A stretch of DNA of 53,865 nucleotides from a virus, in the IMG/VR virus record IMGVR_UViG_3300029267_001426, positions 1 through 53,865 of that record. One strand, given 5' to 3'. Below are positions 1 to 53,865 of the stretch, in pieces; positions within the stretch are counted from its first letter, which is position 1; each line of letters begins with the position of its first letter. The notes beneath the pieces were generated by a model. The model did not search any database, was not told the origin of the DNA, and was given only the letters and a program-made list of their open reading frames with translations. Position numbers and translations under genes: made by a program.

Positions 1-144
1 AACAGGATGCCCTGGACCAGCTGGCAGCTGAAACCCATCCCAGCCTGGCAGACCTCGCCCTGGCATCCCTTGACCTGGTCAAGGATGACCTGGCCCAGGT
101 CCCTGTCATCTTTGCTGGCCAAGCCCTGGCCACCTTTTCCAAGC
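1..144. repeat. Terminal direct repeat, copy 1 (exact copy of 53722..53865)
   Basis: Bases 1..144 recur exactly as the last 144 bases of the window, giving a unit length of 53,721 bp. The repeat lies inside an ORF, so it reads as the overlap of a circular or permuted assembly. Confidence 0.95.
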
Positions 145-752
145 GTTTTGACATCCCCACTGACACCATTGATGCCTATGCCATTTCAGACAATGTGGCC
201 AGGCTGACTGTGGACCAGGTCTGGCAATTTGAGGCACGCCGAGACATGGCCAAGATGGACATCCATCTGGAATTCTACATGGCCAGCCATTGCATGATCT
301 GTGGCCAGGTCATGTGGTCCTATGTGGACAGCCTTGAATCCATCGGCTATCACATGGCCAACAGAATCCCCTGTCCCCACTGTGCCAGACCTGACAGCCC
401 CTTTGAACCTAACATCACCCTGATGGACCTGGACCAGCTGGCTGCCCTCGAGAACCTAGCAGCCACAGCAGTGGCCCAGCTGACACTGAGACTGGCCAGG
501 GAACAGCTGGCCCTTGAACAGGTCAATGCTGACATCCTGCTGGCTGCTGACTGGGATGGCAAGAATACGCCACTTTGCAAGGCCCAGGCTGTGGCCATCC
601 TTGCTGAAAGTGAACAGGCCCAACAGGCCCAGGACCAGGTCTGGCTGACAGAATGCGAACTGGACCAGGCCAAGGCTGAACAGGCCCACTATGCCCAGAA
701 AGCCCGGCTATACAGGGCCTATCTGGACAGCATGCCCAGGCCCAGAAACTGA
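3..752 (+). CDS. Hypothetical protein, 3' part of a gene that crosses the window junction (5' part is 53622..53865)
   Basis: Frame 3 is open from base 3 and continues in frame from ATG 53622. The joined product is about 283 aa. It has HCMICGQ...CPHC cysteine pairs and then an Ala/Gln-rich coiled-coil-like tail. Stop is TGA 750..752. Confidence 0.7.
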   Translation, partial: QDALDQLAAETHPSLADLALASLDLVKDDLAQVPVIFAGQALATFSKRFDIPTDTIDAYAISDNVARLTVDQVWQFEARRDMAKMDIHLEFYMASHCMICGQVMWSYVDSLESIGYHMANRIPCPHCARPDSPFEPNITLMDLDQLAALENLAATAVAQLTLRLAREQLALEQVNADILLAADWDGKNTPLCKAQAVAILAESEQAQQAQDQVWLTECELDQAKAEQAHYAQKARLYRAYLDSMPRPRN

Positions 753-813
753 CATCACCCAGGGGCATCAGTCCCCACCCACATTGGGGCACAGCCCCCA
801 AGGAGCAAAACAG

Positions 814-1371
814 ATGAAAGAACAGTGTCCGGTCCCCAAGGAAACCCTGGCCCAAGCCAGGATTGAAATCCCCCCTGGTTCCCCCTATGACCGCAACCGC
901 GCCCAGCTGGTGAACAAAGACATGATCCAGGCCAGCCTGGGCCACATGATTGATGAACCGACCACCAGCCCTGTCTGGTTCGGACCCACACCAGTCTGGT
1001 CAGCAGGCATTCACCCTGGCAGCCAGCCCCATGGAACCTTTCTGGGTTTCCAGATGGCCATATTCAATCTGAACACATTCGGCCATGTCCAGATGGCCGC
1101 CATTCAGGCCAATGAAATCTTTGACTGGTCCCAATGGCCTGCCCGGCGTGCCACCTTTGCAGCCCAGCTGGTGTCCAGCTGCCAGACTGCCATTGACCTG
1201 AAAAAGGCCATGCTGACAGACCTGACCAGCCAGCCGCCCAAGACTGTGACCAAACGTTACAAGGAAAGGGTCCAGGCAGCTGAACAGTCTGTCCAGCAGG
1301 CTGAACATAACCTGGCCACCATGCTGGATGTGATGGGGATGTCCCCAGACAAGGATGAATCTGATGACTGA
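814..1371 (+). CDS. Hypothetical protein (185 aa)
   Basis: ATG 814 is preceded by AAGGAG with a 7-nt spacer. The upstream part of track ORF 691..1371 has no RBS and overlaps the previous gene. Confidence 0.65.
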   Translation: MKEQCPVPKETLAQARIEIPPGSPYDRNRAQLVNKDMIQASLGHMIDEPTTSPVWFGPTPVWSAGIHPGSQPHGTFLGFQMAIFNLNTFGHVQMAAIQANEIFDWSQWPARRATFAAQLVSSCQTAIDLKKAMLTDLTSQPPKTVTKRYKERVQAAEQSVQQAEHNLATMLDVMGMSPDKDESDD

Positions 1372-2695
1372 GAAAGCCCAAGACCAGGCCCCTGTGGCCT
1401 TAGTTCAAGTCCAGACCATCTGGGCAGCTGGCAAGGAATTCCCTGACATGGATGCTGCCCTGAGACATCAAGACCAGATGCTGGTGGCCCCCTTTCTGTC
1501 CTACTATGTGAAATGGCGAGCCATGCGGGTTTCCAGGGACAAGAAAAGGGCCTTGGCTGCTGCCTACATTGACAGCCGGGCTGTGATGGACAGGCTTGAT
1601 TATGTGTTCGGGAAAAGGGGCTGGTCCCCCCATTACACTGTGACCCCAAAGGGCCTGATGTGTGACCTGACTGTGACCTGGGCAGATGGCACAGTCACCA
1701 CAAAGTCAGCCCTGGGCCATGCCGGTGGGGGCATTGACATTGGGGAAAAGGGTGATGAATCTGATGCCCTGAAAAGGGCTGCTGTGGTCTATGGTGTGGG
1801 GCGCTATCTTTACAGAATGCCCAGCCCCTGGGTGGACTATGATGACCGAGCCAAGCGGCTGACCAGGCTGCCCCCCTTGCCTGACTGGGCTGACCCCAAA
1901 GGGGACCCCACAGCTGATGGCGCGCCCCCTGTGGGTTATGCCCCAGAACCTGAACCTGACACCACAGAGGCCCCCAAGCCAGAACCCCAGACCAGGCAGC
2001 CTGCCAGGCAGACCAGGCAGCCCAGAACCCCTGGGGAAAGCCAGCCGGCTGCTGGCCAGGAAATCCTGACTGCTGGGTCCAAGACAGGGGAACCCCTGGC
2101 CACACCCATCCAGGACCTGGCCATCTGCAAGGTCACTGATGAAAGACCACTGCCTGGCAATTGGAAACTTTTCTACGAAATGGCCCTGGGTGGCAAGTAT
2201 GGTGAATATGCTGCCCAGCCCCATGTGGTCAATGCAGTCAGGCAGTATTTCCCTGGGTTCAACCGGCGTGGCAAGAACAGGCAGAATGTCAGCATTCACC
2301 AGGCATGGTCTGTGATCCTGTTCAGGACCTTGACTGAAACCCAGCAGGCCACTGTCATGGCATCTGCCAGCCAGTCCATCCAGAAAGGTGTCCCCCAGGA
2401 ACCTGAACAGGATGACCTGGATGAAACCAAGGGCAAGCCTGAACAGCAGGCCAAGGCTGGTGGGGATGCCCACTGGGCTGACCAGGAACACCCAGACAAT
2501 CAGCTGGTCAGCTGGTTCCAAGTCTTGGGCCTGATGGACCTGTCCCCAGCTGTGGCTGTCCATGACGGTCTGGGGACAGCCACCCTGCTGGACTATTCTG
2601 GGACCTTTGACCAGGCCATCACTGCCTTGATGGAAAAATGGCCTGAAAAGGCCAAGGCAATGGAAAAGAAACTGGCTGCCCAGTCCCAGAACTAG
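1364..2695 (+). CDS. Rad52/Rad22-family single-strand annealing protein
   Basis: Contains AYIDSRAVMDRLDYVFG...SDALKRAAVVYGVGRYLY, the signature of Rad52-like phage annealases, followed by a Pro/Gln-rich low-complexity tail. The start is ATGACTGA, overlapping the upstream stop. An alternative ATG is at 1355. Confidence 0.8.
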   Translation: MTEKAQDQAPVALVQVQTIWAAGKEFPDMDAALRHQDQMLVAPFLSYYVKWRAMRVSRDKKRALAAAYIDSRAVMDRLDYVFGKRGWSPHYTVTPKGLMCDLTVTWADGTVTTKSALGHAGGGIDIGEKGDESDALKRAAVVYGVGRYLYRMPSPWVDYDDRAKRLTRLPPLPDWADPKGDPTADGAPPVGYAPEPEPDTTEAPKPEPQTRQPARQTRQPRTPGESQPAAGQEILTAGSKTGEPLATPIQDLAICKVTDERPLPGNWKLFYEMALGGKYGEYAAQPHVVNAVRQYFPGFNRRGKNRQNVSIHQAWSVILFRTLTETQQATVMASASQSIQKGVPQEPEQDDLDETKGKPEQQAKAGGDAHWADQEHPDNQLVSWFQVLGLMDLSPAVAVHDGLGTATLLDYSGTFDQAITALMEKWPEKAKAMEKKLAAQSQN

Positions 2696-2719
2696 GGCAG
2701 ACAAGCTGAGAAAGAACAG

Positions 2720-2758
2720 CCGCCATCCCCCTGGGCACAGCCTGGGCAGGGATGGCGG
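2720..2758 (+). terminator. Stem-loop after the annealase gene (10-bp arms ccgccatccc / gggatggcgg)
   Basis: A perfect 10-bp inverted repeat with a 19-nt loop lies 25 nt after the stop. There is no U-tract, so terminator function is uncertain. Confidence 0.4.
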
Positions 2759-2800
2759 TAGAGCGAGCAGCCCCACTGGGGCAGAAAGGTCAGGATCAAG

Positions 2801-3706
2801 ATGTTTGTGGCTTTTGATATTGAAATCACTGCTGGGGTCCATGGGCCAGACTGGTCCATTTTTCGCCCCTATGGCATCAGCTGTGCTGCCACCAAAGTGG
2901 ACGATGAACCAGTCAAGGTCTGGCATGGGGATGGGGACAAGCTGACCCTGCCTGGAATCACCCATCCAGAAAGGATGACCCCAGGCCAAGTGGCTGAACT
3001 GGCCAGCTATCTGCTGAGCATGACCCACTGTGGTCACAGGGTGGTCACTTGGAATGGCTTGGGCTTTGATTTTGACGTCTTGGCCGAGGAAAGCCGGAAC
3101 CCCAAGCTGGCCAGGGAAATCTGTGAACTGGCCCTGAACCACATAGACCTGGGGTTCCTGATGCGCTGTCAGCTGGGGTTCATGGCCAAGCTGGTCAAGG
3201 TGGCCCAGGGCCTAGATGTGGGCAACAAGACCGAGGGCATGCATGGTGGCCTGGCCCCTGTGCTGTGGACTGGAAACTGGCCAGACATCCAGGATGAACA
3301 GGACCTGGCCGAGCTCCGCGCCCAGGTCCAGGCATTGGCCCTGGCCCAGGGGGCTGGGTTCATGCCAGGCAATAGGATGGCCCAGGACCTGGTCTGTGAA
3401 TATGTGGGCCAGGATGTGATCCTAACCATGGATGTGTGCCAGGCCCTGATTCAAAGACGATCGGTTAACTGGATCACTGGCAAGGGGACCCCATCACAAA
3501 GACCCTGGCGCCCGACCATGGCCAAGACAGGCATGGGTCCCAGACCACTGCTGGCCAGGGAATGTCTGGCCAAGGTCCAGGAACCAAACACCAGCTGGAT
3601 GACAAACGCACCCAAGCCCAGGGAATCCTATTATGAATGGATGAAACCCCATCTGGGGACCTATAACCTGGCCATGGCCCTGACTGGCCAGCCCCTGGCA
3701 GACTAG
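2801..3706 (+). CDS. DnaQ-like DEDDy 3'-5' exonuclease
   Basis: Exo I is FDIE, Exo II is WNGLGFDFDVL and Exo III is EYVGQDV (YxxxD), in canonical order. RBS is AGAAAGG upstream of the ATG. Confidence 0.7.
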   Translation: MFVAFDIEITAGVHGPDWSIFRPYGISCAATKVDDEPVKVWHGDGDKLTLPGITHPERMTPGQVAELASYLLSMTHCGHRVVTWNGLGFDFDVLAEESRNPKLAREICELALNHIDLGFLMRCQLGFMAKLVKVAQGLDVGNKTEGMHGGLAPVLWTGNWPDIQDEQDLAELRAQVQALALAQGAGFMPGNRMAQDLVCEYVGQDVILTMDVCQALIQRRSVNWITGKGTPSQRPWRPTMAKTGMGPRPLLARECLAKVQEPNTSWMTNAPKPRESYYEWMKPHLGTYNLAMALTGQPLAD

Positions 3707-3721
3707 CAGAAAGGGAACCCG

Positions 3722-6763: not shown

Positions 6764-6767
6764 TCTA

Positions 6768-6828: not shown

Positions 6829-6857
6829 ACCGACCAAGACAGAAAGGGAAACCAAAG

Positions 6858-7331: not shown

Positions 7332-7620
7332 ACAGGAAATCCAGGCTGCCCAGGCCAGGGCAAAAAAGGCCCTGGTCAGGCCCCTGGGCATTGACCCTGA
7401 TGCCAAGAATCCCAGGCTGCTGGACATCAAGCCTGACCCTGACAAGGTCCTGGCTGAGATTCACACCGACCTGTGGTCAAGTCTGTGGTCAGCCTGTGGC
7501 AGAAATCCTGACCTGGTCAAACAGGTCATGGCTGCCCTGGCTGACCCTGATGTGGTCCACATCACAGTCACTGCTGAAAGGGCTGACATCATGATTGAAC
7601 AGGATGTGGACCATGTCTGA
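7318..7620 (+). CDS. Hypothetical protein (100 aa)
   Basis: This is the first ATG that clears most of the upstream gene, overlapping it by 14 nt. The upstream part of track ORF 7249..7620 lies inside the lipoprotein gene. Confidence 0.55.
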   Translation: MTPAEQEIQAAQARAKKALVRPLGIDPDAKNPRLLDIKPDPDKVLAEIHTDLWSSLWSACGRNPDLVKQVMAALADPDVVHITVTAERADIMIEQDVDHV

Positions 7621-8428
7621 AACAAGCAGACCATTCAGGGTTCTGGCCTGGGGCTGTGGGGTTCAGTCCACCCTATTGGGTGAACTGTCAGCCAGGGGCA
7701 TCATTGAAAAGGTGGACCTGATTCTGTCTGCTGACCCTGGCTGGGAAAGGGCCATCACCTATCAGATGCGCGACTGGTATGCTGCCCGATGGGAAAAGAT
7801 GGGCATGAAAGTGGTCATAATGCCCAAGGATGACATCAAGGGCAAGGGGGCACGGGACCATATTCATATACCTTTCTGGACCAGCACAGGGGGACCACTT
7901 ACCAGGCAATGCACAAGGGCTTTTAAGATTCGCCCCATGCGTCGATGGCTCAGAACCCATCTGGGCTTTCCCCCTGACAGGCCCCCACATCCCCCAGCTG
8001 GGGCCATTGAACAGTGGATGGGCATCACCACAGATGAATGGACCAGGGCCAAGCCATCCAATGTTCAATATGTGATCCACAGATGGCCCCTACTAGAACA
8101 AAGAATGTCCAGGGCTGACTGTGAACAGACATTCATCAGCCTGGGGCTGCCTGTGCCCATCAAGTCTGCCTGTGTCTGCTGCCCCTACCGCAGACCCACA
8201 GAATGGCTGGACATGATTGACACAGCCCCAGATGAATGGGCTGATGCTGTGGCCTTTGACCAGGCCAACAGAAAAAACCCACTGGACAGCAAAGCTGATG
8301 AACTGTTCATCTATAGGGGGGACCAGGTCCCCCTGGACCAGGCAGACCTTGATCATGATGCCAGCCGAGAACGCAGGCTGGGCAGGGTCCACATGTTTGC
8401 CTGTGAATCTGGCTTGTGTGGAGTGTGA
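7613..8428 (+). CDS. PAPS reductase-like (PP-loop superfamily) protein
   Basis: The N-terminal AWGCGVQST sits at the PP-loop position, followed by ADPGWE, then WMGITTDEW and the C-terminal PLLE...GLPVP..SACVCCPY, as is typical of phage PAPS-reductase family proteins. The start is ATGTCTGA, overlapping the upstream stop. Confidence 0.7.
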   Translation: MSETSRPFRVLAWGCGVQSTLLGELSARGIIEKVDLILSADPGWERAITYQMRDWYAARWEKMGMKVVIMPKDDIKGKGARDHIHIPFWTSTGGPLTRQCTRAFKIRPMRRWLRTHLGFPPDRPPHPPAGAIEQWMGITTDEWTRAKPSNVQYVIHRWPLLEQRMSRADCEQTFISLGLPVPIKSACVCCPYRRPTEWLDMIDTAPDEWADAVAFDQANRKNPLDSKADELFIYRGDQVPLDQADLDHDASRERRLGRVHMFACESGLCGV

Positions 8429-8430
8429 AC

Positions 8431-9403: not shown

Positions 9404-9406
9404 CTG

Positions 9407-19827: not shown

Positions 19828-20236
19828 GGAATTTGGTTTTGATGTGGTATCTGACACCGAAATGATCCTTTCCAGCCCAAGTGATAGGTCCTGGGCCATC
19901 AATGTGAAAAAGGTCCTGCTGGGCACAGGTCCCATCTTGGGTGACATGCCCCAGAAAGTATTCTGTCCCTAGTAGAATGTAAGGTCTGGCTGCTGCCTCG
20001 ACCACTGGCAGGCTGTTCCTGTCCAGCAACACATCACCATAGATCAAGCATGTGATGGTGGGTGATCTTGTGGTGTCTGTTTCTACAATGTGACAGACCA
20101 CCATGGGGCAGTCCTCCAAGCTGTCTGGTGGATGTTCTGGGGCTTGATTGATGCCAGTCATAGTGGCCAGCCCAGCTGTCAGGGCTGTGATGTATAGGTC
20201 CAATTCATCTGGTGAATGTGGTGAAAGGTCTGCCAT
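19799..20236 (-). CDS. Tail terminator / tail completion candidate
   Basis: 145 aa. The ATG directly follows the upstream TAG. The call rests on its position between the gp10-like and tube genes. Confidence 0.5.
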   Translation of the reverse strand: MADLSPHSPDELDLYITALTAGLATMTGINQAPEHPPDSLEDCPMVVCHIVETDTTRSPTITCLIYGDVLLDRNSLPVVEAAARPYILLGTEYFLGHVTQDGTCAQQDLFHIDGPGPITWAGKDHFGVRYHIKTKFHVNRLSISP

Positions 20237-20761
20237 CTATCTGCCTTTTCTGGCCCTGCTGGCCACAGCATCAATGATTTCCTCTTGGGCATCTAAAAAG
20301 AACCCTTTGACCAGGGGCCTTGCTTCCATCCATCCCCTGGCAAACATGAATCGCCCTTTGATGCCTTTGCTGTATATCTTGGCCCTGACAGCATAGGCCG
20401 CCCCCTCGTCACCCAGGACCAGCCTGGCCCATCTTTTCAGGGGTTCAATGGGGACCCAGGTCCCAGGCTGCCTGCCGATTTCAACAGGGAAAGCATAGTC
20501 CAGGTTAGATTCAGCAATCCCCCTGATTTCCCCACCTATCTGGCCAATGGTCCCCAGGGTTTCCACCCTGCCTGCTATGGACCCCAGCAAGTCACCCTCA
20601 TTGACTGGGGTCCTGGGCTTGATTTCAGCCACCACAGCATAGATGGATTTTTTCATGGCTGTGACCACGATGGGTTCAGCCAGTTCAGGATACATGGCCA
20701 GGACCTTTGACCAGGCCCTGACTTGGCTGTCATCTATCTTGTATGTGGCAGTTTGGGACAT
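20237..20761 (-). CDS. HK97 gp10-family neck / head-tail joining protein
   Basis: PRTPVNEGDLLGSI resembles the P-V-D-T-G-x-L-x-x-S motif of the gp10 family. Size and position also fit. Confidence 0.6.
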   Translation of the reverse strand: MSQTATYKIDDSQVRAWSKVLAMYPELAEPIVVTAMKKSIYAVVAEIKPRTPVNEGDLLGSIAGRVETLGTIGQIGGEIRGIAESNLDYAFPVEIGRQPGTWVPIEPLKRWARLVLGDEGAAYAVRAKIYSKGIKGRFMFARGWMEARPLVKGFFLDAQEEIIDAVASRARKGR

Positions 20762-20764
20762 CTG

Positions 20765-20860
20765 TCAGAAAGCCCCCTGGGCAAAAGTGTGGCAGATTTC
20801 CTGCCAAGTTTGGATCATTCCCTGCTCAGAATCGCTCCTGACAAGCGTGTTTCTGGCCAT
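20765..20860 (-). CDS. Possible coupled mini-ORF (31 aa)
   Basis: ATG in a TGATG overlap with the upstream stop. Its own stop lies 3 nt before the next ATG, so it fills an otherwise empty 98-nt gap. It is below the track length cutoff. Confidence 0.3.
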   Translation of the reverse strand: MARNTLVRSDSEQGMIQTWQEICHTFAQGAF

Positions 20861-21738
20861 CACAGCCTGGCCATTCTGGGTGGGGCACGCCGGACCAGTT
20901 CCTTGACCATTGGGTCCAGTTTTCTGGGCAATTCCACTGTCCCCAGTTCTGGGGTCCCTGAAATAGTAGACCAGCCAGACTTGACCAGATTATACCACTG
21001 GGCCACTTGGGTCATGGTCGCCCTGACAATCAAGTCAGGGGGACTGGTGGACACTCCCCAGACCCCTGTGACCCTGACCCTGTCCATGCCTTTGGTCCAG
21101 GTCTGCTTTGTGCCTGGGCTTTTGTTGTTCACATCCAGCCGCCTGATGGGGTCATTGGTCAGGGCATTCCTTGGATACCTGACCCAGTCAGTGGATGCCC
21201 AGCTGGTATATGTCCCGTCTGTTTCCTCGACCTCTACCAGGGAAATGCTGACTGCTGGCCAAGGCAGCCACAGGCTTGCCCTGCCATTTCCATCAATGGT
21301 TCTGGCTGATGACCCGCTGGCCATGTAGGCCCCAGGTTCAAGACCCTTGTATTGATCCACCAGCCTGGACACTGCCACAGCACAGGACCACAGGACCTGG
21401 TCCCACTTGGGGCTGATCGCCGATGACCCAGACCCAGTGGACAGTTCCTGGCGCACATCAAAGGCAGTACAATAGGCATCAATTGTGCCACCCTGCTGGG
21501 CATCAGACTTGTCAGACTGCCCTGGGCTGCTGCCCCAGTAGGCCACTTTATACCAGGTATCACTGTCCCCATCTGGGTCCACATAGCTATAACCGGACGT
21601 CTGGGCCACCAGTGTGACAGTCCCATCCAGTGTGGTGAAATCCCCATCCTGGGCAGTGTCTGTGAACACTCGGATCAATGTGTAACCCTGGGCAATCAGA
21701 TTGTCAATGTCAGCCGCTGTGATTTCTAGTCGGATCAT
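20860..21738 (-). CDS. Head-tail connector (gp6-like adaptor) with extra N-terminal beta domain
   Basis: The central region YCTAFDVRQEL...WDQVLWSCAVAVSRLVDQY resembles gp6-type adaptors. ATGA overlap with the upstream gene. Confidence 0.5.
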   Translation of the reverse strand: MIRLEITAADIDNLIAQGYTLIRVFTDTAQDGDFTTLDGTVTLVAQTSGYSYVDPDGDSDTWYKVAYWGSSPGQSDKSDAQQGGTIDAYCTAFDVRQELSTGSGSSAISPKWDQVLWSCAVAVSRLVDQYKGLEPGAYMASGSSARTIDGNGRASLWLPWPAVSISLVEVEETDGTYTSWASTDWVRYPRNALTNDPIRRLDVNNKSPGTKQTWTKGMDRVRVTGVWGVSTSPPDLIVRATMTQVAQWYNLVKSGWSTISGTPELGTVELPRKLDPMVKELVRRAPPRMARL

Positions 21739-32399: not shown

Positions 32400-33787
32400 G
32401 CTGCCCTGCCCCTTAACCAGACCCAGTTTTCAAGGGCCTGACATGCGTGATCATTCCCATCAGCTGGGTCATCCTCAAAGGACCCATCCCTGTTTTCTTT
32501 GTTCCTATAGCCTGATGTGATTTCATCCAGCAGGCTGACACATCTGGGATGAATCATCAAGGTCCTGACCCCTTGGCCATCCTTGATCAATGCCCTGGTT
32601 TCCCTGATGGCTGCCTTTCTTGTGCTGCTTTCCCCCTTGACCTTTCTGGCCATCCAATTCCTGGCAGGGATGTCAGCCTGGGTCAATCGTCGACGCAGGG
32701 CCACCGCTTCATGGGCCACTGCTGCCAGTTCTGGGAACCTGACCCCATGTGCCCTCAGCCAGATGGACCTGTCCTGATACCTGGTGAATGTTTCTGGCAT
32801 GGGGGCCTTGTGGCCTGCCAGCCTGTGTTCATGTTCCAAGGCTGCCCAGGGGGACTGTTCATAAAGTCTGGTCTGGATGTCCCTGATGGTCTGTTCCTCC
32901 AATTGCCTTGATCTGTAATTCTCAGCAAAGACCAGGGCCTTGGAACCCTGTTTCTGAACCCAGACCACTGCCCTGGGATCAATGTAGCCATCGTCAATGC
33001 CCAGTTCAAAGGGCAGCTGGGGATCATAGTCCATCTGGTCTGTGACATTGGCATCACTGAAATCAGCATAGACCAGACCGCTGACTGGTATATACCAGTC
33101 GCCATCCACCCAGGCCCTTTGCAGTCTGGGTGGCAAGGTGGCCAGCATGTCCCAGTAGCCCTGGTCAAGGTGGGGATTGTCCCTGGGCAAGGCGCGCACA
33201 AAGGCGAATTCATGTTCATGCCCAGCCATGTGGTCTGGCATCTGCTTTTCAACAAAAAGGGACCTGACCCACTTGAAATATTTGCCATCAGGGTTAGTGG
33301 CCCCAGCCAGAAAGACGTCACTGATGCCTGGCCATCTTAAGGACCCTCTGAGAATGTCAAAGACCTTGGGTGGGTTTTTGGTCAGTTCATCTATGCCCAT
33401 CCCTGCGAATTCTACAGATTGATACTTGCTGGGGTCATCCAGGTTTCTTAACAGAATCCCGCCCCCACCATAGCAGTCATGCAAGAACCAGCCCAGGCCA
33501 TCTGCTTTCGTGGTCCCCAAGTAGCCCAGCCAGTCAGGGAATTCAGCCAGCTTGGAAATCTGCCTGTCCTTAAGGCTTGGGTAGTCCTCGCAAAACAGCC
33601 CCACCCTGACCCTTTCATGGCCCTGCTGTGCCCACAGCAGCAGCCGCCGCACAAGATACCACCTTAGCCAGAATGATTTCCCAGGACCCCTGGCCCCACC
33701 GAATAAAGTGTATTTGTGGGTGTCAGCTGCCCTGGTGGCATCCATCTGCTTTGTGGTGAATGTGCAAAGGTCAGAAAGTTTGACCAT
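32396..33787 (-). CDS. terL: Terminase large subunit
   Basis: Walker A LFGGARGPGKS, with a nuclease-half pattern downstream. TGATG overlap with terS. It lies just upstream of the portal gene. Confidence 0.9.
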   Translation of the reverse strand: MVKLSDLCTFTTKQMDATRAADTHKYTLFGGARGPGKSFWLRWYLVRRLLLWAQQGHERVRVGLFCEDYPSLKDRQISKLAEFPDWLGYLGTTKADGLGWFLHDCYGGGGILLRNLDDPSKYQSVEFAGMGIDELTKNPPKVFDILRGSLRWPGISDVFLAGATNPDGKYFKWVRSLFVEKQMPDHMAGHEHEFAFVRALPRDNPHLDQGYWDMLATLPPRLQRAWVDGDWYIPVSGLVYADFSDANVTDQMDYDPQLPFELGIDDGYIDPRAVVWVQKQGSKALVFAENYRSRQLEEQTIRDIQTRLYEQSPWAALEHEHRLAGHKAPMPETFTRYQDRSIWLRAHGVRFPELAAVAHEAVALRRRLTQADIPARNWMARKVKGESSTRKAAIRETRALIKDGQGVRTLMIHPRCVSLLDEITSGYRNKENRDGSFEDDPADGNDHACQALENWVWLRGRAA

Positions 33788-34206: not shown

Positions 34207-34941
34207 TCACTTGATGGCCACCCAGCCACAGAAATTCATCCACCTCCAGAAACAGTCAACAGCCCTGAACCCAGCCTGGGTCAGCAGCTGTTCATTCCAG
34301 GCAGCTGTCACAGGGACCAGGACCCCTGACAGGGCCAGCCGCTTTCTTTCAATGTCATCCTGGGAATAGCCATTCTGGGCCTTGAATCCGTGGTATAGGT
34401 CCACCATCAGGCCATTGACCTGGGCAGTGGCCCCCAGGACCTTTTCCACCAGGATGAATGCCCCACCATCTTGCAAGCTGTCATAGACGTCCTGGACCAG
34501 CTGCTGTCTACATTCCAGGGGGACAAACATCATAGTCAGGATGGACTGGATGACACTGGCCATGCAAGGGGGGAAATCCTTGGCCAGGTCCAGGTCCTTG
34601 ATTCTGACACAAGGGCTGGGGCCATCCACAAAGCCCCCAAAACGATCGCGCAAGACGTCAAGCATAGGGGGGCTGGTTTCCACCAGGACAAAGCTGTTGG
34701 TCATTCCCCACAGGTCCACCAGGGGGGCAATGCTGGCCCCTCGACTAGCCCCCAGGTCCACTATGTCAGTGTGGGGCATCCTGAACCTGACAGCCAGGTC
34801 ATAGCATGCGCGCCGCATCACATCCAGCTGGGGGATGGACCTGGCCAGCATGTCATCAAAAACCTGGGTGACCTGGTCATCAAAGGCCCAGCGGTCTGGA
34901 CTGTAGCCTGTGTCAGTTGGGTGATCCTGTGAATGATCCAT
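34207..34941 (-). CDS. cmoA: CmoA-like carboxy-S-adenosylmethionine (Cx-SAM) synthase
   Basis: 244 aa, collinear end to end with E. coli CmoA as I recall it: WAFDDQVTQVFDDMLARSIPQ, motif I VDLGASRG, FILVEK, YHGFKAQNGYSQDDIERKR, and C-terminal WMNFCGWVAIK. The start at ATG 34941 comes after the upstream TAG. The longer track ORF is rejected. Confidence 0.8.
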   Translation of the reverse strand: MDHSQDHPTDTGYSPDRWAFDDQVTQVFDDMLARSIPQLDVMRRACYDLAVRFRMPHTDIVDLGASRGASIAPLVDLWGMTNSFVLVETSPPMLDVLRDRFGGFVDGPSPCVRIKDLDLAKDFPPCMASVIQSILTMMFVPLECRQQLVQDVYDSLQDGGAFILVEKVLGATAQVNGLMVDLYHGFKAQNGYSQDDIERKRLALSGVLVPVTAAWNEQLLTQAGFRAVDCFWRWMNFCGWVAIK

Positions 34942-34954
34942 TGATCCTGTCCCC

Positions 34955-36358
34955 CTATGCCTGGACCCCTGAAAAGGCCCTGATGAATTCTGCCCTATAG
35001 AATCGGGCTGGACTGGGCAGTCTGTTTCTGATGGCAGCCTTGATGCCCATCCCATCCTGGAAAGCCAGCTTGGGCCTTTCACAGATGTGGTCAGGCAGAA
35101 TGCCCCTATAGGCCAGGGACAGGACTGCCTTTTCCTTTTCGTGCTCAGCAGGCCCCCTGACAGCTGCCCTGGAAAGGCCCAGGGCATACTGAACCAAGCC
35201 CTGGGACAAAAAGGGTAGTCTACATTCTACACCATAGGCCATGAATGCTTTGTTAGCCCTGGCGAAATTTTTCCTATGCTGCCCCAAGAAAAGGCCCCGC
35301 CGATAGGCATGCCAGCCAGATGAAATGACCCCATGATAGCTGAAACCATAGCTGGCCCACAGTTCGTCTGAACCCTCCCCAGAATAGGTCACCTTGAACC
35401 CATCCTGGGCCATGGCCTTGGCCAAGTGTAGGCAGGGCCAGCCAATTTCCACTTGGGCCTTGTGGGGCATTTCAATGATCTGGACCACCCTGGCCAGGTC
35501 ATCCCTACCAGGGCAAGGGACTGGGATTTCTTTCAGATGGACACCCAGCTGGCCGCAGATGTGCCGAGCAGCAGCCAGGTCCTTTGAATGGGGATTATAG
35601 ACAGCAGTATAGGCAGTCACATCCCTGAAATGCTGGACCAGATGCCATAGAACAGCCGATGAATCAATGCCCCCAGAAATCAGGCAGCAGACAGGGACAT
35701 CAGACAAGGTTCTGGCCAGGACCCCATCCTTGACCAATGTCTTGACCTGGACTGATGCCTGGACCAGGTCATCTGGCAGCCTGCCTGGCTGAATCTCAGC
35801 AAAGGGCCTGGCAATCATCCCATCCTTGTGGGCAGACACCACATAGCCAGGCTGAACCCAGGAAACAGACCTGGGATGGCAGCCCATGGCCAGCAGGGCC
35901 TTGATTTCAGATGCAAAGCAGAAAGGCTGCTGCTGGCTGATGTGGACTGGGATTTCCCCAAAGATGTCCCTGGCCACAAAGACCTGGCCATCTGCCCAGG
36001 ACCAGGCCATGGCAAACATCCCATCAAACTTGGGCAGGGCATCCAGGCCCCATTCATTCAAAGCCGCGGCTATAATCTCAGTGTCCCCAGTGGTCCTGAA
36101 CTGGTGGCCGAGCTCGAGCAATTCAGCCTTGATCTGGGCACAGTTCCACAGTTCCCCATTATAGACCAGGTCCAGGCCATCCCTGTGGAATGGCTGGTCT
36201 GACCTGGGCAAGGGGTCCAGAATAGCCAGCCTGGTGGCCCCCAGAAAGGCTGACCCAGACTTGACCAGCCCCTGGCCATCAGGCCCCCTGTGGACCAAGG
36301 CAGCCATGCCCTGTAGGGTGGCCTTTTCTGACCTGAACCCGCCGACTATACCACACAT
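34955..36358 (-). CDS. Asparagine synthetase B-type glutamine amidotransferase / amidoligase (as a separate gene from the internal ATG)
   Basis: MCGIVGG (Ntn Cys2), HRGPDGQG, RLAILD, YNGELWN, GMFAMAW, PP-loop CLISGGIDSS and YSGEGSDELW. AAGGTGG lies 7 nt before ATG 36358. Confidence 0.7.
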   Translation of the reverse strand: MCGIVGGFRSEKATLQGMAALVHRGPDGQGLVKSGSAFLGATRLAILDPLPRSDQPFHRDGLDLVYNGELWNCAQIKAELLELGHQFRTTGDTEIIAAALNEWGLDALPKFDGMFAMAWSWADGQVFVARDIFGEIPVHISQQQPFCFASEIKALLAMGCHPRSVSWVQPGYVVSAHKDGMIARPFAEIQPGRLPDDLVQASVQVKTLVKDGVLARTLSDVPVCCLISGGIDSSAVLWHLVQHFRDVTAYTAVYNPHSKDLAAARHICGQLGVHLKEIPVPCPGRDDLARVVQIIEMPHKAQVEIGWPCLHLAKAMAQDGFKVTYSGEGSDELWASYGFSYHGVISSGWHAYRRGLFLGQHRKNFARANKAFMAYGVECRLPFLSQGLVQYALGLSRAAVRGPAEHEKEKAVLSLAYRGILPDHICERPKLAFQDGMGIKAAIRNRLPSPARFYRAEFIRAFSGVQA

Positions 36359-37522
36359 CAGACAGCCACCTTGGCCAGGACCTGGTCCCTGATCGCCGAT
36401 GCAAGATGGCACATCATAAGGGGGGGGGACTGCCCTGCCCAGCCTTTCCCATCGCTTATTATAGGACCCTGTCAGCTGGAAATCTGCTGGGAAAGAACAG
36501 ATGGCCATCACTTCTGGGATGGTAAACTTGCGCCGCCTGGGGGATGTGGGCTGGCCAGCCTGGTCCTGGTCCCTTTCTATGTATAGATGGCCTGGGCCTG
36601 CCTGCCTGACTGTGGGGGCTGGCCTGCTGGTGAAATCCCCCATGCCCCAGCTGCCCCCTGTGTCCTCGATTGCCCGGACAGTCCCAGCCAGGGCATCAGC
36701 CACAGTATAATAGTAGGGCAAGGGGCTGGGCCAGGCATGGTCCACATCCAGGTCATCCCTGATGCCCTGGAAAAATAGCCTTTCCCTGGACTGGGGGACA
36801 CCCAGCCACTGGGCATCAAGTTTGACCACCTTGACCCTATAGCCGCAATCTTTCAGCAGGGCCAGAATCTGCAAGAAATAACCCTTGGCCTTGCCCCTGA
36901 CCAGCCCTGGGACATTCTCAGCCAAGAATACCTTGGGCCTGATGCCCTTGACCAGCCTGGCATATTCCCAGAACAGGTCATCTGTTCTTTGCTGGGTGTC
37001 AGAATATGCTTTCACCTTGCCCCAGTCCTTTTCCCTGTGGCCAATGACTGAAAAGGACGCACATGGGGGGCTGCCATCCATCAGGTCAAGGTCACCCTGC
37101 CCCAGGCCGATGGCATCAAGGATTTCAGCAGCTGTGACCTGTCTGATGTCCCTGGTGTCAAGGATGCTGCCTGGGTGATTCAGCCTGTAGACCTCTTGGG
37201 CAGCTGGGACAAATTCATTGGCCCATAAGACCTTGAACCCAGCCATGCGCAGGCCGAGACAAGAACCACCAGCCCCAGAAAAGGTGGAAATGGCCCTGAA
37301 CCCATTCCAGGGGACCTGTTCAATGTCTGCCATGCTGGGCAGCTGGTATGGTGGCTTGAATGTCCTGTCTTTTCCAGGCACTATTTCACCCTCTAGCCAA
37401 TAGTGTGATAGATTGTCCCCACAGATGCCCCCAGCCAAGATGGCTGGGCTGGGCTGTCTGTCCAGGTCAAAACGCTCCACCATGGGTGTCATCCCATTGG
37501 GGTTATGGTGACAAAGAATCAT
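34955..37522 (-). CDS. Continuous ORF as assembled: C5-cytosine DNA methyltransferase-like domain fused in frame to the AsnB-like domain
   Basis: There is no stop between the two halves in the given sequence. ATG 37522 is in an ATGA overlap with the ParB-like gene. Alternative starts are 37540 and 37333. The fusion depends on the 9-nt homopolymer at 36420..36428. Confidence 0.6.
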   Translation of the reverse strand: MILCHHNPNGMTPMVERFDLDRQPSPAILAGGICGDNLSHYWLEGEIVPGKDRTFKPPYQLPSMADIEQVPWNGFRAISTFSGAGGSCLGLRMAGFKVLWANEFVPAAQEVYRLNHPGSILDTRDIRQVTAAEILDAIGLGQGDLDLMDGSPPCASFSVIGHREKDWGKVKAYSDTQQRTDDLFWEYARLVKGIRPKVFLAENVPGLVRGKAKGYFLQILALLKDCGYRVKVVKLDAQWLGVPQSRERLFFQGIRDDLDVDHAWPSPLPYYYTVADALAGTVRAIEDTGGSWGMGDFTSRPAPTVRQAGPGHLYIERDQDQAGQPTSPRRRKFTIPEVMAICSFPADFQLTGSYNKRWERLGRAVPPPYDVPSCIGDQGPGPGQGGCLMCGIVGGFRSEKATLQGMAALVHRGPDGQGLVKSGSAFLGATRLAILDPLPRSDQPFHRDGLDLVYNGELWNCAQIKAELLELGHQFRTTGDTEIIAAALNEWGLDALPKFDGMFAMAWSWADGQVFVARDIFGEIPVHISQQQPFCFASEIKALLAMGCHPRSVSWVQPGYVVSAHKDGMIARPFAEIQPGRLPDDLVQASVQVKTLVKDGVLARTLSDVPVCCLISGGIDSSAVLWHLVQHFRDVTAYTAVYNPHSKDLAAARHICGQLGVHLKEIPVPCPGRDDLARVVQIIEMPHKAQVEIGWPCLHLAKAMAQDGFKVTYSGEGSDELWASYGFSYHGVISSGWHAYRRGLFLGQHRKNFARANKAFMAYGVECRLPFLSQGLVQYALGLSRAAVRGPAEHEKEKAVLSLAYRGILPDHICERPKLAFQDGMGIKAAIRNRLPSPARFYRAEFIRAFSGVQA
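36358..37522 (-). CDS. C5-cytosine DNA methyltransferase-like enzyme (predicted carboxymethyltransferase). The stand-alone form needs an 8-nt homopolymer.
   Basis: Motifs: I FSGAGGSCLG, IV SPPCASFS, VI LAENVPG, VIII QSRERLF, IX RKFTIPEVMAICSFPADF and X LGRAVPP. With one C fewer the C terminus reads AVPPLMMCHLASAIRDQVLAKVAV and stops at TGA 36358..36360. Confidence 0.6.
36420..36428. repeat. G9 (C9 on the coding strand) homopolymer inside MTase motif X
   Basis: This is the longest G/C run I saw in the window. It encodes the PPP of GRAVPPP. Confidence 0.9.
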
Positions 37523-38124
37523 CTGGGCTGCCCAGACCATTCATAGCCACAGCTGGGGCATCTGTAGTCTGTTTCCAGTTCATCACCATATTCCTGAAAG
37601 GCCTCTGGGGCCTGGTCCTGTTCAGCCAGCCGCCGAAAAAGGGCCAGGTCATCAGTGTCCACTGTCACAGGCAGCTGGTCTGCTGTGTTCAAGGTTTCCA
37701 AGAACTGGGCATAATTGGCATCATAGACCCTGCTGATGTCCAGCTGGGTGACATCCCCACCAGCCATGACCAGGCTGTTGTGATCGATGCTATAGGCCCA
37801 GGCAGCATGTTCACTGGCAGCATCCACACCAAAGATGACCGGGACTGCCCAGTCATCAGATTCCTGTTCAAGCAAGATGCCCCTGGGCACAGGGTCCCCC
37901 TGGCCTTTCATCCAAGTCAGGGCCTGGATTCTGCCATTGCCAGCCACTATGCCACCCTTGCCACCATTCAGGGTGGGTTCCCACTTGGGTGGGTCCTTGA
38001 ACCCATGCCGCTTGATTGAATCAATTATGGAACCAAGGTCATGCAGTTTGACATTCTGGGCAAACAGCAGGCATGTGGCAAGTGGGACATATTCAAGGCG
38101 CAATTTCTCAGCAGGGCTGGACAA
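37519..38124 (-). CDS. ParB N-terminal (ParB/Srx-like nuclease) domain protein with C-terminal Zn-ribbon
   Basis: LRLEYVPLATCLL...NVKLHDLGSIIDSIKRHGF...VAGNGRIQAL matches the ParB-like fold pattern. TTG start 7 nt after AAAGGA. The C terminus has CPSCGYEW. Confidence 0.7.
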   Translation of the reverse strand: MSSPAEKLRLEYVPLATCLLFAQNVKLHDLGSIIDSIKRHGFKDPPKWEPTLNGGKGGIVAGNGRIQALTWMKGQGDPVPRGILLEQESDDWAVPVIFGVDAASEHAAWAYSIDHNSLVMAGGDVTQLDISRVYDANYAQFLETLNTADQLPVTVDTDDLALFRRLAEQDQAPEAFQEYGDELETDYRCPSCGYEWSGQPR

Positions 38125-38925: not shown

Positions 38926-38979
38926 GGGCTTGTCCCAATTGAACAGCCGACCAAGACAGAACCAGAAAGGACCCAGACA

Positions 38980-40759: not shown

Positions 40760-40792
40760 CAGGCCCCCTGGGCCTAGAAAAGGAACCTGACC

Positions 40793-48528: not shown

Positions 48529-48538
48529 GAACAGACAG

Positions 48539-48754
48539 ATGAAAGGTCCCCAAGAACAGAAAAGAATCAATGCCATCAAGACCACAAAAAGGTGGGGGCT
48601 GGCCCTGACCCTGGCAGCCTTTTTCAGCCTGCTGATTATGGCTGGGCACATCTGGCCCCAGGATGCCAAGGACTGGCCCTTGTTGGTCACAGGGGCTGGC
48701 TTTTCCCTGGGCTTGTCCTGGCTGATCGCCGATGGAAAAGACTGGCTGTTCTGA
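48539..48754 (+). CDS. Small two-TM membrane protein (71 aa)
   Basis: AGGA lies 8 nt before ATG 48539. The hydrophobic segments are WGLALTLAAFFSLLIMAG and LLVTGAGFSLGLSWLI. Confidence 0.55.
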   Translation: MKGPQEQKRINAIKTTKRWGLALTLAAFFSLLIMAGHIWPQDAKDWPLLVTGAGFSLGLSWLIADGKDWLF

Positions 48755-49317
48755 TGAATAGCTATAGGGCCAGCAAAGGCAAAAGGGGCAAGCCCATTGG
48801 CTGGGCTGACTTGCCTGGTGTGGTCTATCTGCTACACTTTGACAAGCCCCACCATCATGCCCAGCACTATCTGGGCTTTTCTCAGCAGCTGGAAACCAGG
48901 CTGGGCAAGCATTTCAGTGGCAATGGGACTGGCTTGACTCGAGTGATCAAAGAACAGGCAAACAACCATGCAGTCCTGGCCAGGACCTGGCCACACCCAG
49001 CTGGCCTGGGACCTGTGCCAGACAGCCAGCTGGTGGACCAATGTGTTGAAATGGTCCTGAAAGCCAGGGCTGAAAGCCCCAGGCTGTGCCCCATCTGTAA
49101 CCCGGACAAGGCCCTGTCCTTGGCCAGGTATTACACTGTCAAGCCCACAGCTGCTGACCTGGATGGCCAGGACCCTGATGACTGTGAATGGTGGAAACAT
49201 GACCTGGGTCTATTCGTTTTTACTTATGATCCAGACCTGGACCTGATGACAGCTGCCCCACCAGAAAGGACAGACACATGCCAGACATCCCTGGCAACCT
49301 TAGAAATGCTATTCTGA
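48754..49317 (+). CDS. GIY-YIG-like nuclease family protein
   Basis: TGATG overlap with the upstream gene. GVVYLLHFDKPHHHAQHYLGFSQQLETRLGKHFSGNG resembles the GIY-YIG-related phage family. Confidence 0.45.
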   Translation: MNSYRASKGKRGKPIGWADLPGVVYLLHFDKPHHHAQHYLGFSQQLETRLGKHFSGNGTGLTRVIKEQANNHAVLARTWPHPAGLGPVPDSQLVDQCVEMVLKARAESPRLCPICNPDKALSLARYYTVKPTAADLDGQDPDDCEWWKHDLGLFVFTYDPDLDLMTAAPPERTDTCQTSLATLEMLF

Positions 49318-49925
49318 ATGTGGATGCCAGGGACCTGGCTGACCAGCTGCCTGATGCATCCATTGACCTGGTGTTCACTGACCCTGTCTATGACCAGCTG
49401 GATGACTATTTCTGGCTGGCCAAGACAGCTGCCAGGGTCCTGAAACCTGACAGAAATCTGCTGGCCTGGGCCAGTGTGCCCAAGGCTGCCAGGGTCCAGG
49501 GAATGATGGAAATCAGCCCCCTGGACTATGTCTATACCTTGACCTATACCGTGAAAGCCAAGACCTATAGAATGCGCGGCTATCACCTTTTTTGCTGGAC
49601 CACACCCTGTCTGTGGTTCAGAAAAGGGGCTGGGTTCATGCCTGACCCCTGGGTCCCAGACACGTTCATCAGCAGCAAAAGACCTGATGGCGCTCACAAG
49701 TGGAACAAAAACCAGGCTGTCCTTGGGGCCTGGCTGAAAGCATACTGCCCCCCAGGGGGCACAGTCTGGGACCCATTCTGTGGGGGCGGGTCAATCCCTG
49801 TTATGTGCAAGATGCTGGGCCTGACCTATGTGGCATCTGAGATTGATCCAGACACAACAGCCATGGCCATAGACAGGCTGGCCAACACGCTGCCCCTTTT
49901 TGAAATGATCCAGGGGCAATTCTGA
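49278..49925 (+). CDS. Beta-class amino DNA methyltransferase (N6-adenine or N4-cytosine)
   Basis: Motif IV IDLVFTDPVY precedes motif I VWDPFCGGGS, which is the beta-class order. AGAAAGGA lies 7 nt before the ATG. Confidence 0.75.
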   Translation: MPDIPGNLRNAILNVDARDLADQLPDASIDLVFTDPVYDQLDDYFWLAKTAARVLKPDRNLLAWASVPKAARVQGMMEISPLDYVYTLTYTVKAKTYRMRGYHLFCWTTPCLWFRKGAGFMPDPWVPDTFISSKRPDGAHKWNKNQAVLGAWLKAYCPPGGTVWDPFCGGGSIPVMCKMLGLTYVASEIDPDTTAMAIDRLANTLPLFEMIQGQF

Positions 49926-49938
49926 GAAAGGACCCGAC

Positions 49939-51102: not shown

Positions 51103-51104
51103 CC

Positions 51105-53293: not shown

Positions 53294-53298
53294 CCCGC

Positions 53299-53327
53299 TT
53301 GACAAGGGGGCTGGACTGTGCTATAAT
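53299..53327 (+). promoter_or_regulatory. Rightward sigma70-type promoter with extended -10
   Basis: TTGACA (53299..53304), a 17-nt spacer, then TGcTATAAT (-10 at 53322..53327). Confidence 0.7.
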
Positions 53328-53330
53328 TTC

Positions 53331-53354
53331 CTATAGGTTTCTATAGTCTGATAG
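53331..53354 (+). promoter_or_regulatory. Operator-like repeats CTATAG-N4-CTATAG-t-CTGATAG
   Basis: Hexamers at 53331 and 53341 are spaced 10 bp apart, with a third half-site at 53348. They lie between the -10 and the RHH gene, forming a TA-rich cluster in a TA-poor genome. Confidence 0.45.
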
Positions 53355-53383
53355 GCAAGGCCACAGCAGCCAGAAAGGACAAC

Positions 53384-53629
53384 ATGACCACAGAACAGGG
53401 TGACACCACAGTTGGGGTCAGCAAAGCTGACCACAGCCAGCTGGCATCCCTGGCCAGGTCTGATGGACGTTCACAGAAAGCATTCATCAGCAGGCTGATG
53501 GCACTATGGCTGGCAGTCCCCCCAGCTGTGCGCGAACTCTTGATCCTGGGGCTGGTCCCCCCAGATTTCCTGACTGGGCTGATGGCCCAGATGGTCCCTA
53601 CTAGAAAGGACACTGAACAGAATGACTGA
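53384..53629 (+). CDS. Ribbon-helix-helix (Arc/CopG-like) regulator
   Basis: TTVGVSKADHSQLASLARSDGRSQKAFISRLMAL fits a beta-strand-helix-helix pattern. AGAAAGGA lies 4 nt before the ATG. This is the first gene after the promoter. Confidence 0.55.
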   Translation: MTTEQGDTTVGVSKADHSQLASLARSDGRSQKAFISRLMALWLAVPPAVRELLILGLVPPDFLTGLMAQMVPTRKDTEQND

Positions 53630-53865
53630 ACCGACCAAGACGGATGAATCCACTGCCCAGGCCCCTGTGGCAGACCTGGACCAGCAGGCCGCTGATGCTG
53701 CTGCTGATTTCCTGGCTGCTGAACAGGATGCCCTGGACCAGCTGGCAGCTGAAACCCATCCCAGCCTGGCAGACCTCGCCCTGGCATCCCTTGACCTGGT
53801 CAAGGATGACCTGGCCCAGGTCCCTGTCATCTTTGCTGGCCAAGCCCTGGCCACCTTTTCCAAGC
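53622..53865 (+). CDS. 5' part of the junction-spanning hypothetical gene (continues at base 145 of the unit, i.e. feature 3..752)
   Basis: ATGACTGA overlap with the RHH gene stop. The frame is open to the window end, and the last 144 nt are the terminal repeat. Confidence 0.7.
   Translation, partial: MTEPTKTDESTAQAPVADLDQQAADAAADFLAAEQDALDQLAAETHPSLADLALASLDLVKDDLAQVPVIFAGQALATFSK
53722..53865. repeat. Terminal direct repeat, copy 2
   Basis: Exact copy of 1..144. Confidence 0.95.

Follow-up and report, generated by a model that had tools for sequence, protein, structure and literature searches.

The main finding of this work is that the genome of a phage has been cleared of a whole set of short DNA words, of which the dinucleotide CpG is the most visible, on both strands and in coding and non-coding DNA alike. 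The window analyzed is the entire stretch of 53,865 nucleotides of the viral record IMGVR_UViG_3300029267_001426 (positions 1 to 53,865); its first 144 bases are repeated at 53722..53865 on the plus strand, so that the contig closes on itself and gives a complete genome of ~53,721 bp. Our findings suggest, with moderate confidence, that the cause is selection against short DNA words that host defences can read, the CpG purge being the most visible layer of it. The genome also encodes a cassette of the Cmo type of cytosine modification, a system published in December 2025 (PMC12783734). An earlier note on this DNA had proposed as its lead hypothesis that a C5 modification of CpG led to its loss by deamination. 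This is not supported, since words without CpG are purged as well and phages that carry the same type of enzyme, CmoX, are CpG-normal. The alternative that the note listed, selection against CpG-containing restriction sites, fits best, in a much broader form than CpG-containing sites.

As shown by strand-symmetrised observed-to-expected ratios (O/E), the whole window (G+C 57.0%) has CG at 0.149, TA at 0.352, TG/CA at 1.63, CC/GG at 1.29 and GC at 0.96. The depletion of CpG and TpA and the excess of TpG/CpA, described earlier from local counts by hand, thus hold genome-wide, and the counts themselves were close: about 35 CpG in 1..3000 against 41 computed (O/E 0.16), 9 in 20041..21000 against 9 (O/E 0.13), and a TpA O/E of about 0.25-0.3 in 1..600 against 0.26. 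The expectation of about 80 CpG per kb was corrected to ~72-83 per kb. CpG O/E is 0.15, 0.17 and 0.11 in the three strand blocks and 0.14 in the 3.2 kb of non-coding DNA, and within genes it is 0.30 at codon positions 1-2, 0.08 at positions 2-3 and 0.13 at the junction between codons (3-1). All 16 NCGN contexts are poor in CpG (0.05-0.23), palindromic and non-palindromic ones to about the same degree, and the map per kb is flat, without islands and with Poisson-like counts per 200 bp; ~650 CpG are left in the genome. The TpA value is low, yet other phage contigs fetched for comparison reach 0.26-0.31. The CpG value is an outlier: among ~145 loci from phages and metagenome-assembled genomes (MAGs), no other contig of more than 50% G+C falls below 0.66, the window's own contigs excepted. 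TA survives mainly as ATA/TAT, which is tolerated because Tyr codons force it.

The codon-shuffled null that had been proposed as a check was run as 200 shuffles in which synonymous codons were permuted within genes, so that proteins and codon usage were kept. It gave 2260 +/- 26 CpG where 621 are observed, and 1487 +/- 21 TpA where 849 are observed. Together with the low value at the codon junction, this upholds the view that it is the dinucleotide itself on which the bias bears, on both strands and across codon junctions, and that codon preference alone does not account for it. Codon counts bear out what had been said of Arg (AGG 480, AGA 167, CGN 228), of Leu (CTG in 1097 of 1588) and of Ala, which is written GCT in 484 of 525 cases before G and GCC in 954 of 985 cases before any other base. 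Similarly, NNT codons almost never precede A. Stop codons are TGA (35), TAG (20) and TAA (6), and the rarity of TAA/TAG, and of TTA/CTA for the other strand, does explain the many long spurious open reading frames (ORFs).

The purge reaches well beyond CpG and TpA. GAG/CTC occurs 296 times against 1869 expected from dinucleotides (0.16), and GAAG/CTTC 14 times against 481 (0.03); GAAAG is common because it is part of the ribosome-binding site (RBS). TGCA stands at 0.37 of its order-2 Markov expectation and GTAC at 0.03 of its composition expectation, and the purge of these short words is even along the genome and symmetric between strands. Among the palindromic hexamers, 25 of 64 (39%) are absent from the 53.7 kb, whereas composition shuffles lose 0. 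Against a dinucleotide-aware expectation, GGGCCC (0/152), CTGCAG (0/104), GGATCC (0/52), GTGCAC (0/51) and AGGCCT (2/65) are missing or nearly so, and CAGCTG, TGGCCA and GAATTC exceed it 3-4 fold. With the expectation taken from an order-3 Markov model, avoidance is seen in 8 of the 22 testable palindromic hexamers vs 27 of the 949 non-palindromes (Fisher p=3e-7), and the avoided non-palindromes resemble known asymmetric sites, e.g. ACCTGC, CACCTG and GAGACC. All purged words tested lie far beyond the synonymous-permutation null, with CTTC at 0 vs 139 +/- 10 and GGGCCC at 0 vs 32 +/- 4.5. Selection is favoured over mutational bias here, since nothing in such a bias would single out palindromes. 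The count of absent palindromes per 18 kb failed to set the window apart from phages of skewed composition and is not used as evidence.

Word avoidance also reshapes protein sequence. The dipeptides E-G, E-A, E-V, E-D and E-E occur at 0.33-0.47 of expectation; Glu is depleted before codons that begin with G, because GAG or GAAG is unavoidable there. Met-Gln and Leu-Gln, both of which create or tend to create TGCA, stand at 0.20 and 0.24. Compared with its relatives, the window is poorer in Glu and Arg in four structural proteins and richer in Gln and Asp. Glu was lost mainly to Asp and Gln in the window lineage, Glu to Asp being the most frequent of the lineage-specific replacements.

Depletion is alike on the sense and the antisense strand, and non-coding DNA shares it, which makes DNA the target and not mRNA. 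An RNA-level cause (mRNA cleavage or translation) was rejected on the equal deficit in non-coding DNA and on the sense-strand counts, in which CTC/CTTC are purged at least as strongly as GAG/GAAG. Two further candidates were tried and rejected. The loss of CpG as a sum of palindromic 4-cutter sites was ruled out, since non-palindromic NCGN are equally poor. The residual CpGs were also considered as horizontally acquired patches not yet ameliorated; counts of GAG and CG (non-overlapping) are uncorrelated at 50-500 bp, and CpG per 200 bp is Poisson-like.

We hypothesize that the driver would be DNA-targeting host defences, mainly restriction-modification, possibly together with an agent that reads 2-4-bp words. 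Proteins would be kept while the DNA is rewritten, each codon being picked by the first base of the next codon, Arg being written as AGR and an AGAAAGG RBS taking the place of GGAGG; where synonymous choice falls short, amino acids would change, e.g. from Glu to Asp or Gln. Removal of CG would delete all CG-containing recognition sites together, and the CG-free sites (GGGCCC, CTGCAG, GGATCC, GTGCAC, AGGCCT, ACCTGC) would then be removed singly. The RBS found before most genes is AGAAAGG(A/G) and not GGAGG (e.g. 38955-38979, 44260-44284 and 49253-49277); it still pairs with the anti-Shine-Dalgarno sequence and avoids the purged word GAG.

We infer that nucleases are the selecting agents and that CG itself, and not the sum of longer sites, is being read. 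Several observations weigh against this explanation. Since all NCGN contexts are depleted evenly, a few 4-6-bp sites do not add up to the CG deficit, and we know of no nuclease or defence system in prokaryotes for which a dinucleotide alone is the target. An enzyme cutting every CpG would still cut at the sites that are left. CpG avoidance is lifted directly before AG, where P(C before GAG)/f(C) is 1.10, and is weak before CG (0.69), other trinucleotides lying at 0.06-0.25; all CGAG/CTCG number 92 on both strands, and CGCG 78. Residual CpGs are clustered at short range, 28% lying within 10 nt of another vs 11% expected. The relief at CGAG and this clustering are predicted by no simple per-word cost model. 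Two relatives of the phage (L029 and L097) avoid nearly all palindromic hexamers tested with CpG at a normal level, and palindrome avoidance does not, therefore, require CpG loss. Finally, amelioration to the host may still play a part.

Relatives were recovered by alignment with the portal protein.

30033..32399, minus strand: portal with a Mu-F-like C-terminal domain (PF04860 2e-51, PF04233 2e-10)

This search gave 80 metagenome loci and several long contigs, and all 80 loci are CpG-normal. The closest relatives, which were looked up separately (52-58% portal identity), have CpG O/E of 0.97 in L143, which comes from the same sample (ERZ27256778) and has a G+C of 55.5%, similar to the window, and of 0.97-1.07 in L009 to L014. 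Other contigs with the same portal are 100% identical to the window, and no near-identical phages for a mutation spectrum were found, the next relatives being at ~66% DNA identity. Many relatives are also without GGGCCC and other palindromes, and site avoidance is a habit of this phage family. One relative, IMGVR_UViG_3300001687_000030 (46.7 kb; L015/L024/L106/L141; also ERZ27279932 k141_8621086), with 40% portal identity, is purged of a different dinucleotide: ApG/CpT stands at 0.12-0.16 over ~41 kb, with CpG at 2.1 and ApA/TpT at 1.6. Its CAC/GTG is at 0.20 and its GGAC/GTCC at 0.13; GCCGGC, GGCGCC, CCCGGG, GGATCC and TGGCCA are absent, and palindromes are over-represented among its avoided hexamers (p=4e-6). 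It encodes MT-A70 and D12-class adenine methylases and has an HNH match, and no C5 enzyme was found in ~41 kb of the 46.7 kb. Dinucleotide purges in this phage group are thus lineage-specific and not tied to cytosine methylation, and the different deep deficits of two related phages argue against both cytosine deamination and simple host mimicry.

As a side observation, a short portal-related contig (L073; Ga0114925_10023561, 3.5 kb) shows CpA/TpG of 0.46, GpA/TpC of 1.72 and CpG of 1.45. This dinucleotide profile is unusual and may mark a third such lineage, but the contig is too short for a judgement.

The relatives bear most directly on amelioration, or mimicry, of a host poor in CpG and TpA, e.g. 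a thermophile, or an archaeon with AGR as its Arg codons, which seems to us distinctly unlikely. Phage dinucleotide profiles generally track those of their hosts, and the TpA of the window lies within the range of other phage contigs. CpG O/E follows phylogeny strongly and takes low values in thermophiles, which would favour amelioration, and in bacteria it rises with G+C, which speaks against it at the G+C of the window (PMC11282364). The samples are sediment metagenomes. A portal-alignment scan of genome contigs for a host yielded only MAG contigs, five in number, which are of mixed taxonomy and have normal CpG without exception. The nearest relatives, including that from the same sample, have CpG at 0.96-1.03, so the signature is not common to related phages. 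We know of no cellular genome near a CpG of 0.15 at 57% G+C, nor of one that lacks ApG/CpT, the dinucleotide purged in the relative. In addition, GAG/CTC at 0.16, GAAG/CTTC at 0.03 and 25 absent palindromes are foreign to cellular genomes, which guard their own sites by methylation.

The second question is what the modification cassette of the phage does, and whether it could have caused the loss of CpG. The cassette consists of three genes on the minus strand.

34207..34941, minus strand: CmoA-like carboxy-S-adenosylmethionine (carboxy-SAM) synthase, directly downstream of CmoX and annotated with 244 aa in the source contig (TIGR00740, match along the full model with E=3e-40; 138 bits, below the equivalog cut-off of 193)
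34955..37483, minus strand: CmoX fused to a CmoY-type glutamine-amidotransferase/asparagine-synthase-type ligase, 842 aa (Pfam DNA_methylase 6.5e-49, GATase_7 1.5e-27, Asn_synthase 9e-36)
37519..38124, minus strand: ParB-like protein, upstream of CmoX (phrog_620 E=5e-10)

Residues 1-395 of the fusion match SpCmoX, the best solved structure (PDB 8YF3), with E=7e-53, and both features that define CmoX were found: the SPPC motif and, in motif X, an Arg (R350 of SpCmoX) instead of Asn. The corresponding segments DGSPPCASFS and ERLGRAVPP, aligned to 8YF3, are invariant among the aligned homologues. Judged from its sequence, the resident C5 enzyme is a CmoX carboxymethyltransferase and not an ordinary methylase. 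An AMP-forming amide ligase (Asn_synthase with GATase_6/7) is present and fused to CmoX, with the same architecture in P0090/L102, and for this ligase cluster ammonia is predicted as donor, giving a carbamoylmethyl product (PMC12783734). The expected product of the cassette is 5-carbamoylmethyl-cytosine. A ParB-like neighbour has been reported at CmoX loci (PMC12783734) and was found next to CmoX also in L102 and L104. The locus 1037-5149 of L102 holds the only other fusion of CmoX and ligase found (48% identity). After it come CmoA and a chorismate-mutase/DAHP-synthase protein, which would supply prephenate for carboxy-SAM synthesis; that contig has 72% G+C and a CpG of 1.36.

The one characterised and mapped CmoX, that of Synechococcus phage S-B43, targets GpC (PMC12783734). 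The S-B43 system has, like the window, a CmoA or CmoA-like protein, a CmoX with SPPC and the carboxy-SAM-binding Arg, an asparagine-synthase-type ligase and a ParB-like neighbour; unlike it, the window has CmoX and ligase fused, a glutamine amidotransferase domain in the ligase and a shortened target-recognition region. This region (residues ~246-317; within 36250-37483, minus strand) has ~72 residues vs ~106-115 in SpCmoX and homologues, i.e. ~35-40 fewer. It does not align with that of the GpC-targeting SpCmoX, and the conserved segment around KPSPT is absent from it. A motif at the N-terminus of the window protein, RQPSPAILAGG...GDNLSHYWLE, is similar to the RPAPTV segment of the recognition region; in some homologues it is repeated. 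A PDB sequence search with CmoX gave no chain identifiable as a bacterial CpG methylase; the eukaryotic DNMT1 matched the catalytic core.

In this setting, the deamination hypothesis says that CmoX, or a host enzyme, modifies the cytosine of CpG, that the resulting 5-substituted uracil escapes uracil repair, and that CpG decays to TpG/CpA. We regard it as unlikely, despite several observations that agree with it. A C5 enzyme of the CmoX type, with catalytic SPPC and the carboxy-SAM-binding Arg, is present; its short target-recognition region could mean a very short target, and the equal poverty of all NCGN contexts is what a pure reader of CpG would leave. Retention of CpG is highest at Arg CGN (0.30 vs 0.08 and 0.13), where transitions change the amino acid, the residual CpGs are clustered with CGCG relatively spared, and TG/CA at 1.63 is slightly above the 1.50 that base composition forces. 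This last value comes from a maximum-entropy model with base composition, CG and TA fixed, which gives 1.50 for TpG/CpA and 1.27 for CC/GG (observed 1.63 and 1.29). Since the model predicts most of it, the TpG/CpA excess is largely arithmetic and not independent evidence of C-to-T decay. Moreover, deamination cannot yield the purges of GAG/CTC, GAAG/CTTC, TGCA, GTAC and the palindromes, for which selection, demonstrably strong, is needed anyway; the depletion in the window is not confined to one methylated dinucleotide.

The genomes that carry CmoX weigh in the same direction. Among cultured CmoX phages, CpG O/E is 1.02 in TurkishDelight, which has the same GATase-type ligase, 1.12 in PaBG and 0.82 in Mcat8, and the contigs of the nearest CmoX homologues, including that of the only other CmoX-CmoY fusion, stand at 1.36, 1.15 and 0.96; no erosion of CpG was found in genomes with this enzyme family (0.82-1.36, S-B43 excepted). 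S-B43, a cyanophage of 39% G+C without the extreme dinucleotide deficit of the window, has CpG at 0.51, and Syn9, which had no CmoX hit in the phage search, has 0.52. The only mapped motif of a CmoX is GpC (PMC12783734), and this target is lowered in S-B43 merely to 0.78. In S-PM2 and Syn9 (L146 and L147), both without a CmoX hit, GpC is 0.93-0.94 vs the 0.78 of S-B43 (L098), a single comparison of different genome regions that may reflect mild erosion or avoidance of the modified dinucleotide and that, as far as it goes, favours deamination. In the ~41 kb covered of the ApG/CpT-poor relative, adenine methylases were found but no C5 enzyme, and for an ApG/CpT deficit we know of no deamination route. 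If selection against readable words is the cause instead, ParB, CmoX-CmoY and CmoA would probably add 5-carbamoylmethyl-cytosine at another or an overlapping motif, as a second protective layer.

The cassette lies in a slot upstream of the terminase genes, marked by the large terminase, whose position is kept in relatives.

32396..33787, minus strand: large terminase (TIGR01547 E=1e-3, a weak match)

The modification cassettes in this slot differ between related phages.

Window, 34207-38124: ParB with CmoX-CmoY and CmoA
L009, 4788-8030: three TAGT glycosyltransferases with a radical SAM/SPASM protein
L012, 4844-8095: N6/N4 methylase with a B12-binding radical SAM protein
L143, 3983-7134: plain C5 methylase with an epimerase and a Vut_1 transporter

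This exchange of cassettes at one slot is also what would be seen if the constraint were self-imposed, that is, if a very frequent-cutting nuclease, made by the phage or a resident element for the destruction of host DNA, or a hypermodification too costly to be made at many sites, led selection to keep target words few in the phage genome and CmoX protected the remainder. We consider this quite unlikely. In chloroviruses, frequent-cutter restriction or nicking enzymes with their methylation systems have targets of 2-4 nt, among them words as short as GpC, CCD and RAG. If CG were cut, the CpGs left in the window would need protection, and the carboxymethyl-amide pathway costs prephenate, SAM, glutamine and ATP per site (PMC12783734), which fits a limit on sites. 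Weak nuclease-like matches, all below curated thresholds, are a GIY-YIG (48592-49317) and a VRR-NUC (43263-43574) of the window, besides the HNH match in the ApG-poor relative; no convincing short-target nuclease was identified among them. Self-imposed constraint leans, further, on an analogy with the chloroviruses, which, unlike the window, protect themselves by heavy methylation and not by deletion of words, and no homologue of their systems was identified in the window. The long list of absent hexamers is left unexplained by it.

An artefact of assembly or sequencing, e.g. modified bases miscalled so that CpG is read as TpG, has a negligible probability, even though the genome probably carries a hypermodified cytosine. 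The window is the MEGAHIT contig ERZ27256778 k141_2134892 at ENA, and independent assemblies from several samples and by several pipelines (ENA MEGAHIT, JGI, Logan) gave the identical sequence. The ORFs are intact, Arg is written as AGR and not as broken TGN/CAN codons, and the proteins align over their full length with those of relatives. The collection of cultured phages gave no match to the window.

Counter-selection of Type II sites has been surveyed in prokaryotic genomes (PMC4687349). The window resembles known restriction-site avoidance of phages in being strand-symmetric and independent of codon usage, in the full removal of palindromic 4-6-mers, in the enrichment of palindromes and in lineage-specific sets of words; it goes beyond it with a dinucleotide, a trinucleotide, an asymmetric tetranucleotide, 25 of 64 palindromic hexamers and altered dipeptide usage. 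Our literature searches gave no description of avoidance at the dinucleotide level, or of depletion at such word length, in phages. Vertebrate genomes and some vertebrate DNA viruses have, like the window, a CpG of ~0.15-0.25 and a TpG/CpA excess in coding and non-coding DNA; the window differs from vertebrate-type depletion in its many absent non-CpG words, in a TpG/CpA excess largely forced by composition and in having no CpG islands. Mycoplasma penetrans, with a CpG methyltransferase, is another example of CpG depletion (PMC11282364). Site avoidance and the Cmo system were known before; new here are the depth and word length of the avoidance, its footprint on proteins, and sister lineages purged of different dinucleotides.

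A broader proposal, that some phage lineages rewrite their genomes in a vocabulary without one dinucleotide (CG here, AG/CT in the relative) to escape defence, we put forward tentatively and think rather unlikely. If it were true, hosts or phages would deploy DNA-targeting enzymes or sensors that read only 2-4 bp, and an interchangeable hypermodification cassette beside the terminase would cover the words that cannot be deleted. To our knowledge, no class of prokaryotic immunity that reads 2-4-bp words has been described, and the purges of CG and of AG/CT would point to enzymes of defence or attack whose targets are shorter than those of any prokaryotic enzyme characterised so far. Should selection be the cause, this genome would show to what lengths a phage can take the avoidance of sequences against defence, at the cost of altered proteins, and its list of forbidden words would be a direct read-out of what the host community can cut. 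The genome also warns that CpG depletion with TpG/CpA excess is no proof of methylation and deamination, most of that excess being arithmetic here. On the practical side, ORF callers go wrong on such genomes, where every frame is poor in stop codons, and host predictors based on k-mer composition will misplace them.

Against this background, three repeated words that contain CpG stand out.

6192, 10284, 21414, 27061, 36390 and 48723, plus strand: six exact copies of the 12-mer TGATCGCCGATG, with two CpGs (expected 0.09)
11030 and 22987, plus strand, 32687 and 43870, minus strand: four copies of TGCGTCGACGA, which has three CpGs and CGTCGACG as its palindromic core (expected 0.02)
3307, 22121, 36106, 40048 and 47021, plus strand only: five copies of GGCCGAGCTC (expected 0.04)

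The six copies of TGATCGCCGATG are always on the plus strand, whatever the strand of the local gene; copies with one mismatch occur at 46585 (plus) and 341 (minus). TGCGTCGACGA is spaced by ~10-12 kb, and its orientation flips between 23 and 32.7 kb. GGCCGAGCTC contains three of the purged words, CG, GAG and CTC. No flanking similarity was found among the copies of TGATCGCCGATG or among those of TGCGTCGACGA. From their number and placement, all three words are probably functional DNA signals kept against the purge, and TGATCGCCGATG looks like a polar signal comparable to Chi or KOPS. An FtsK/SpoIIIE-like and a ParB-like protein are encoded by the same phage.

As for the remaining genes, the window has those of an HK97-type tailed phage, and the following further features were recognised.

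27085-28521, minus strand: HK97-type major capsid protein (TIGR01554 9e-4)
28525-30048, minus strand: prohead protease/scaffold (PF04586 5e-4)
49278..49925, plus strand: N6/N4 DNA methyltransferase, CcrM-like C-terminal part (PF01555 1.8e-8; NF050803 2e-11)
7595..8428, plus strand: PAPS-reductase-like protein in the early/replication arm (phrog_424 E=5e-29)

Most of ~40 further ORFs scanned against Pfam or PHROGs were without a family. ARAGORN called one tRNA-Ala(AGC) of 91 nt at 40766-40856 on the minus strand, in a region of overlapping ORFs; its atypical length and anticodon indicate that it is probably a false positive. The plus-strand arms encode Rad52-like, FtsK-like (FtsK/SpoIIIE-like) and DnaC/IstB-like proteins, a winged-helix replication protein and DUF551 proteins, and the PAPS-reductase-like protein is a possible further function in nucleic-acid modification.

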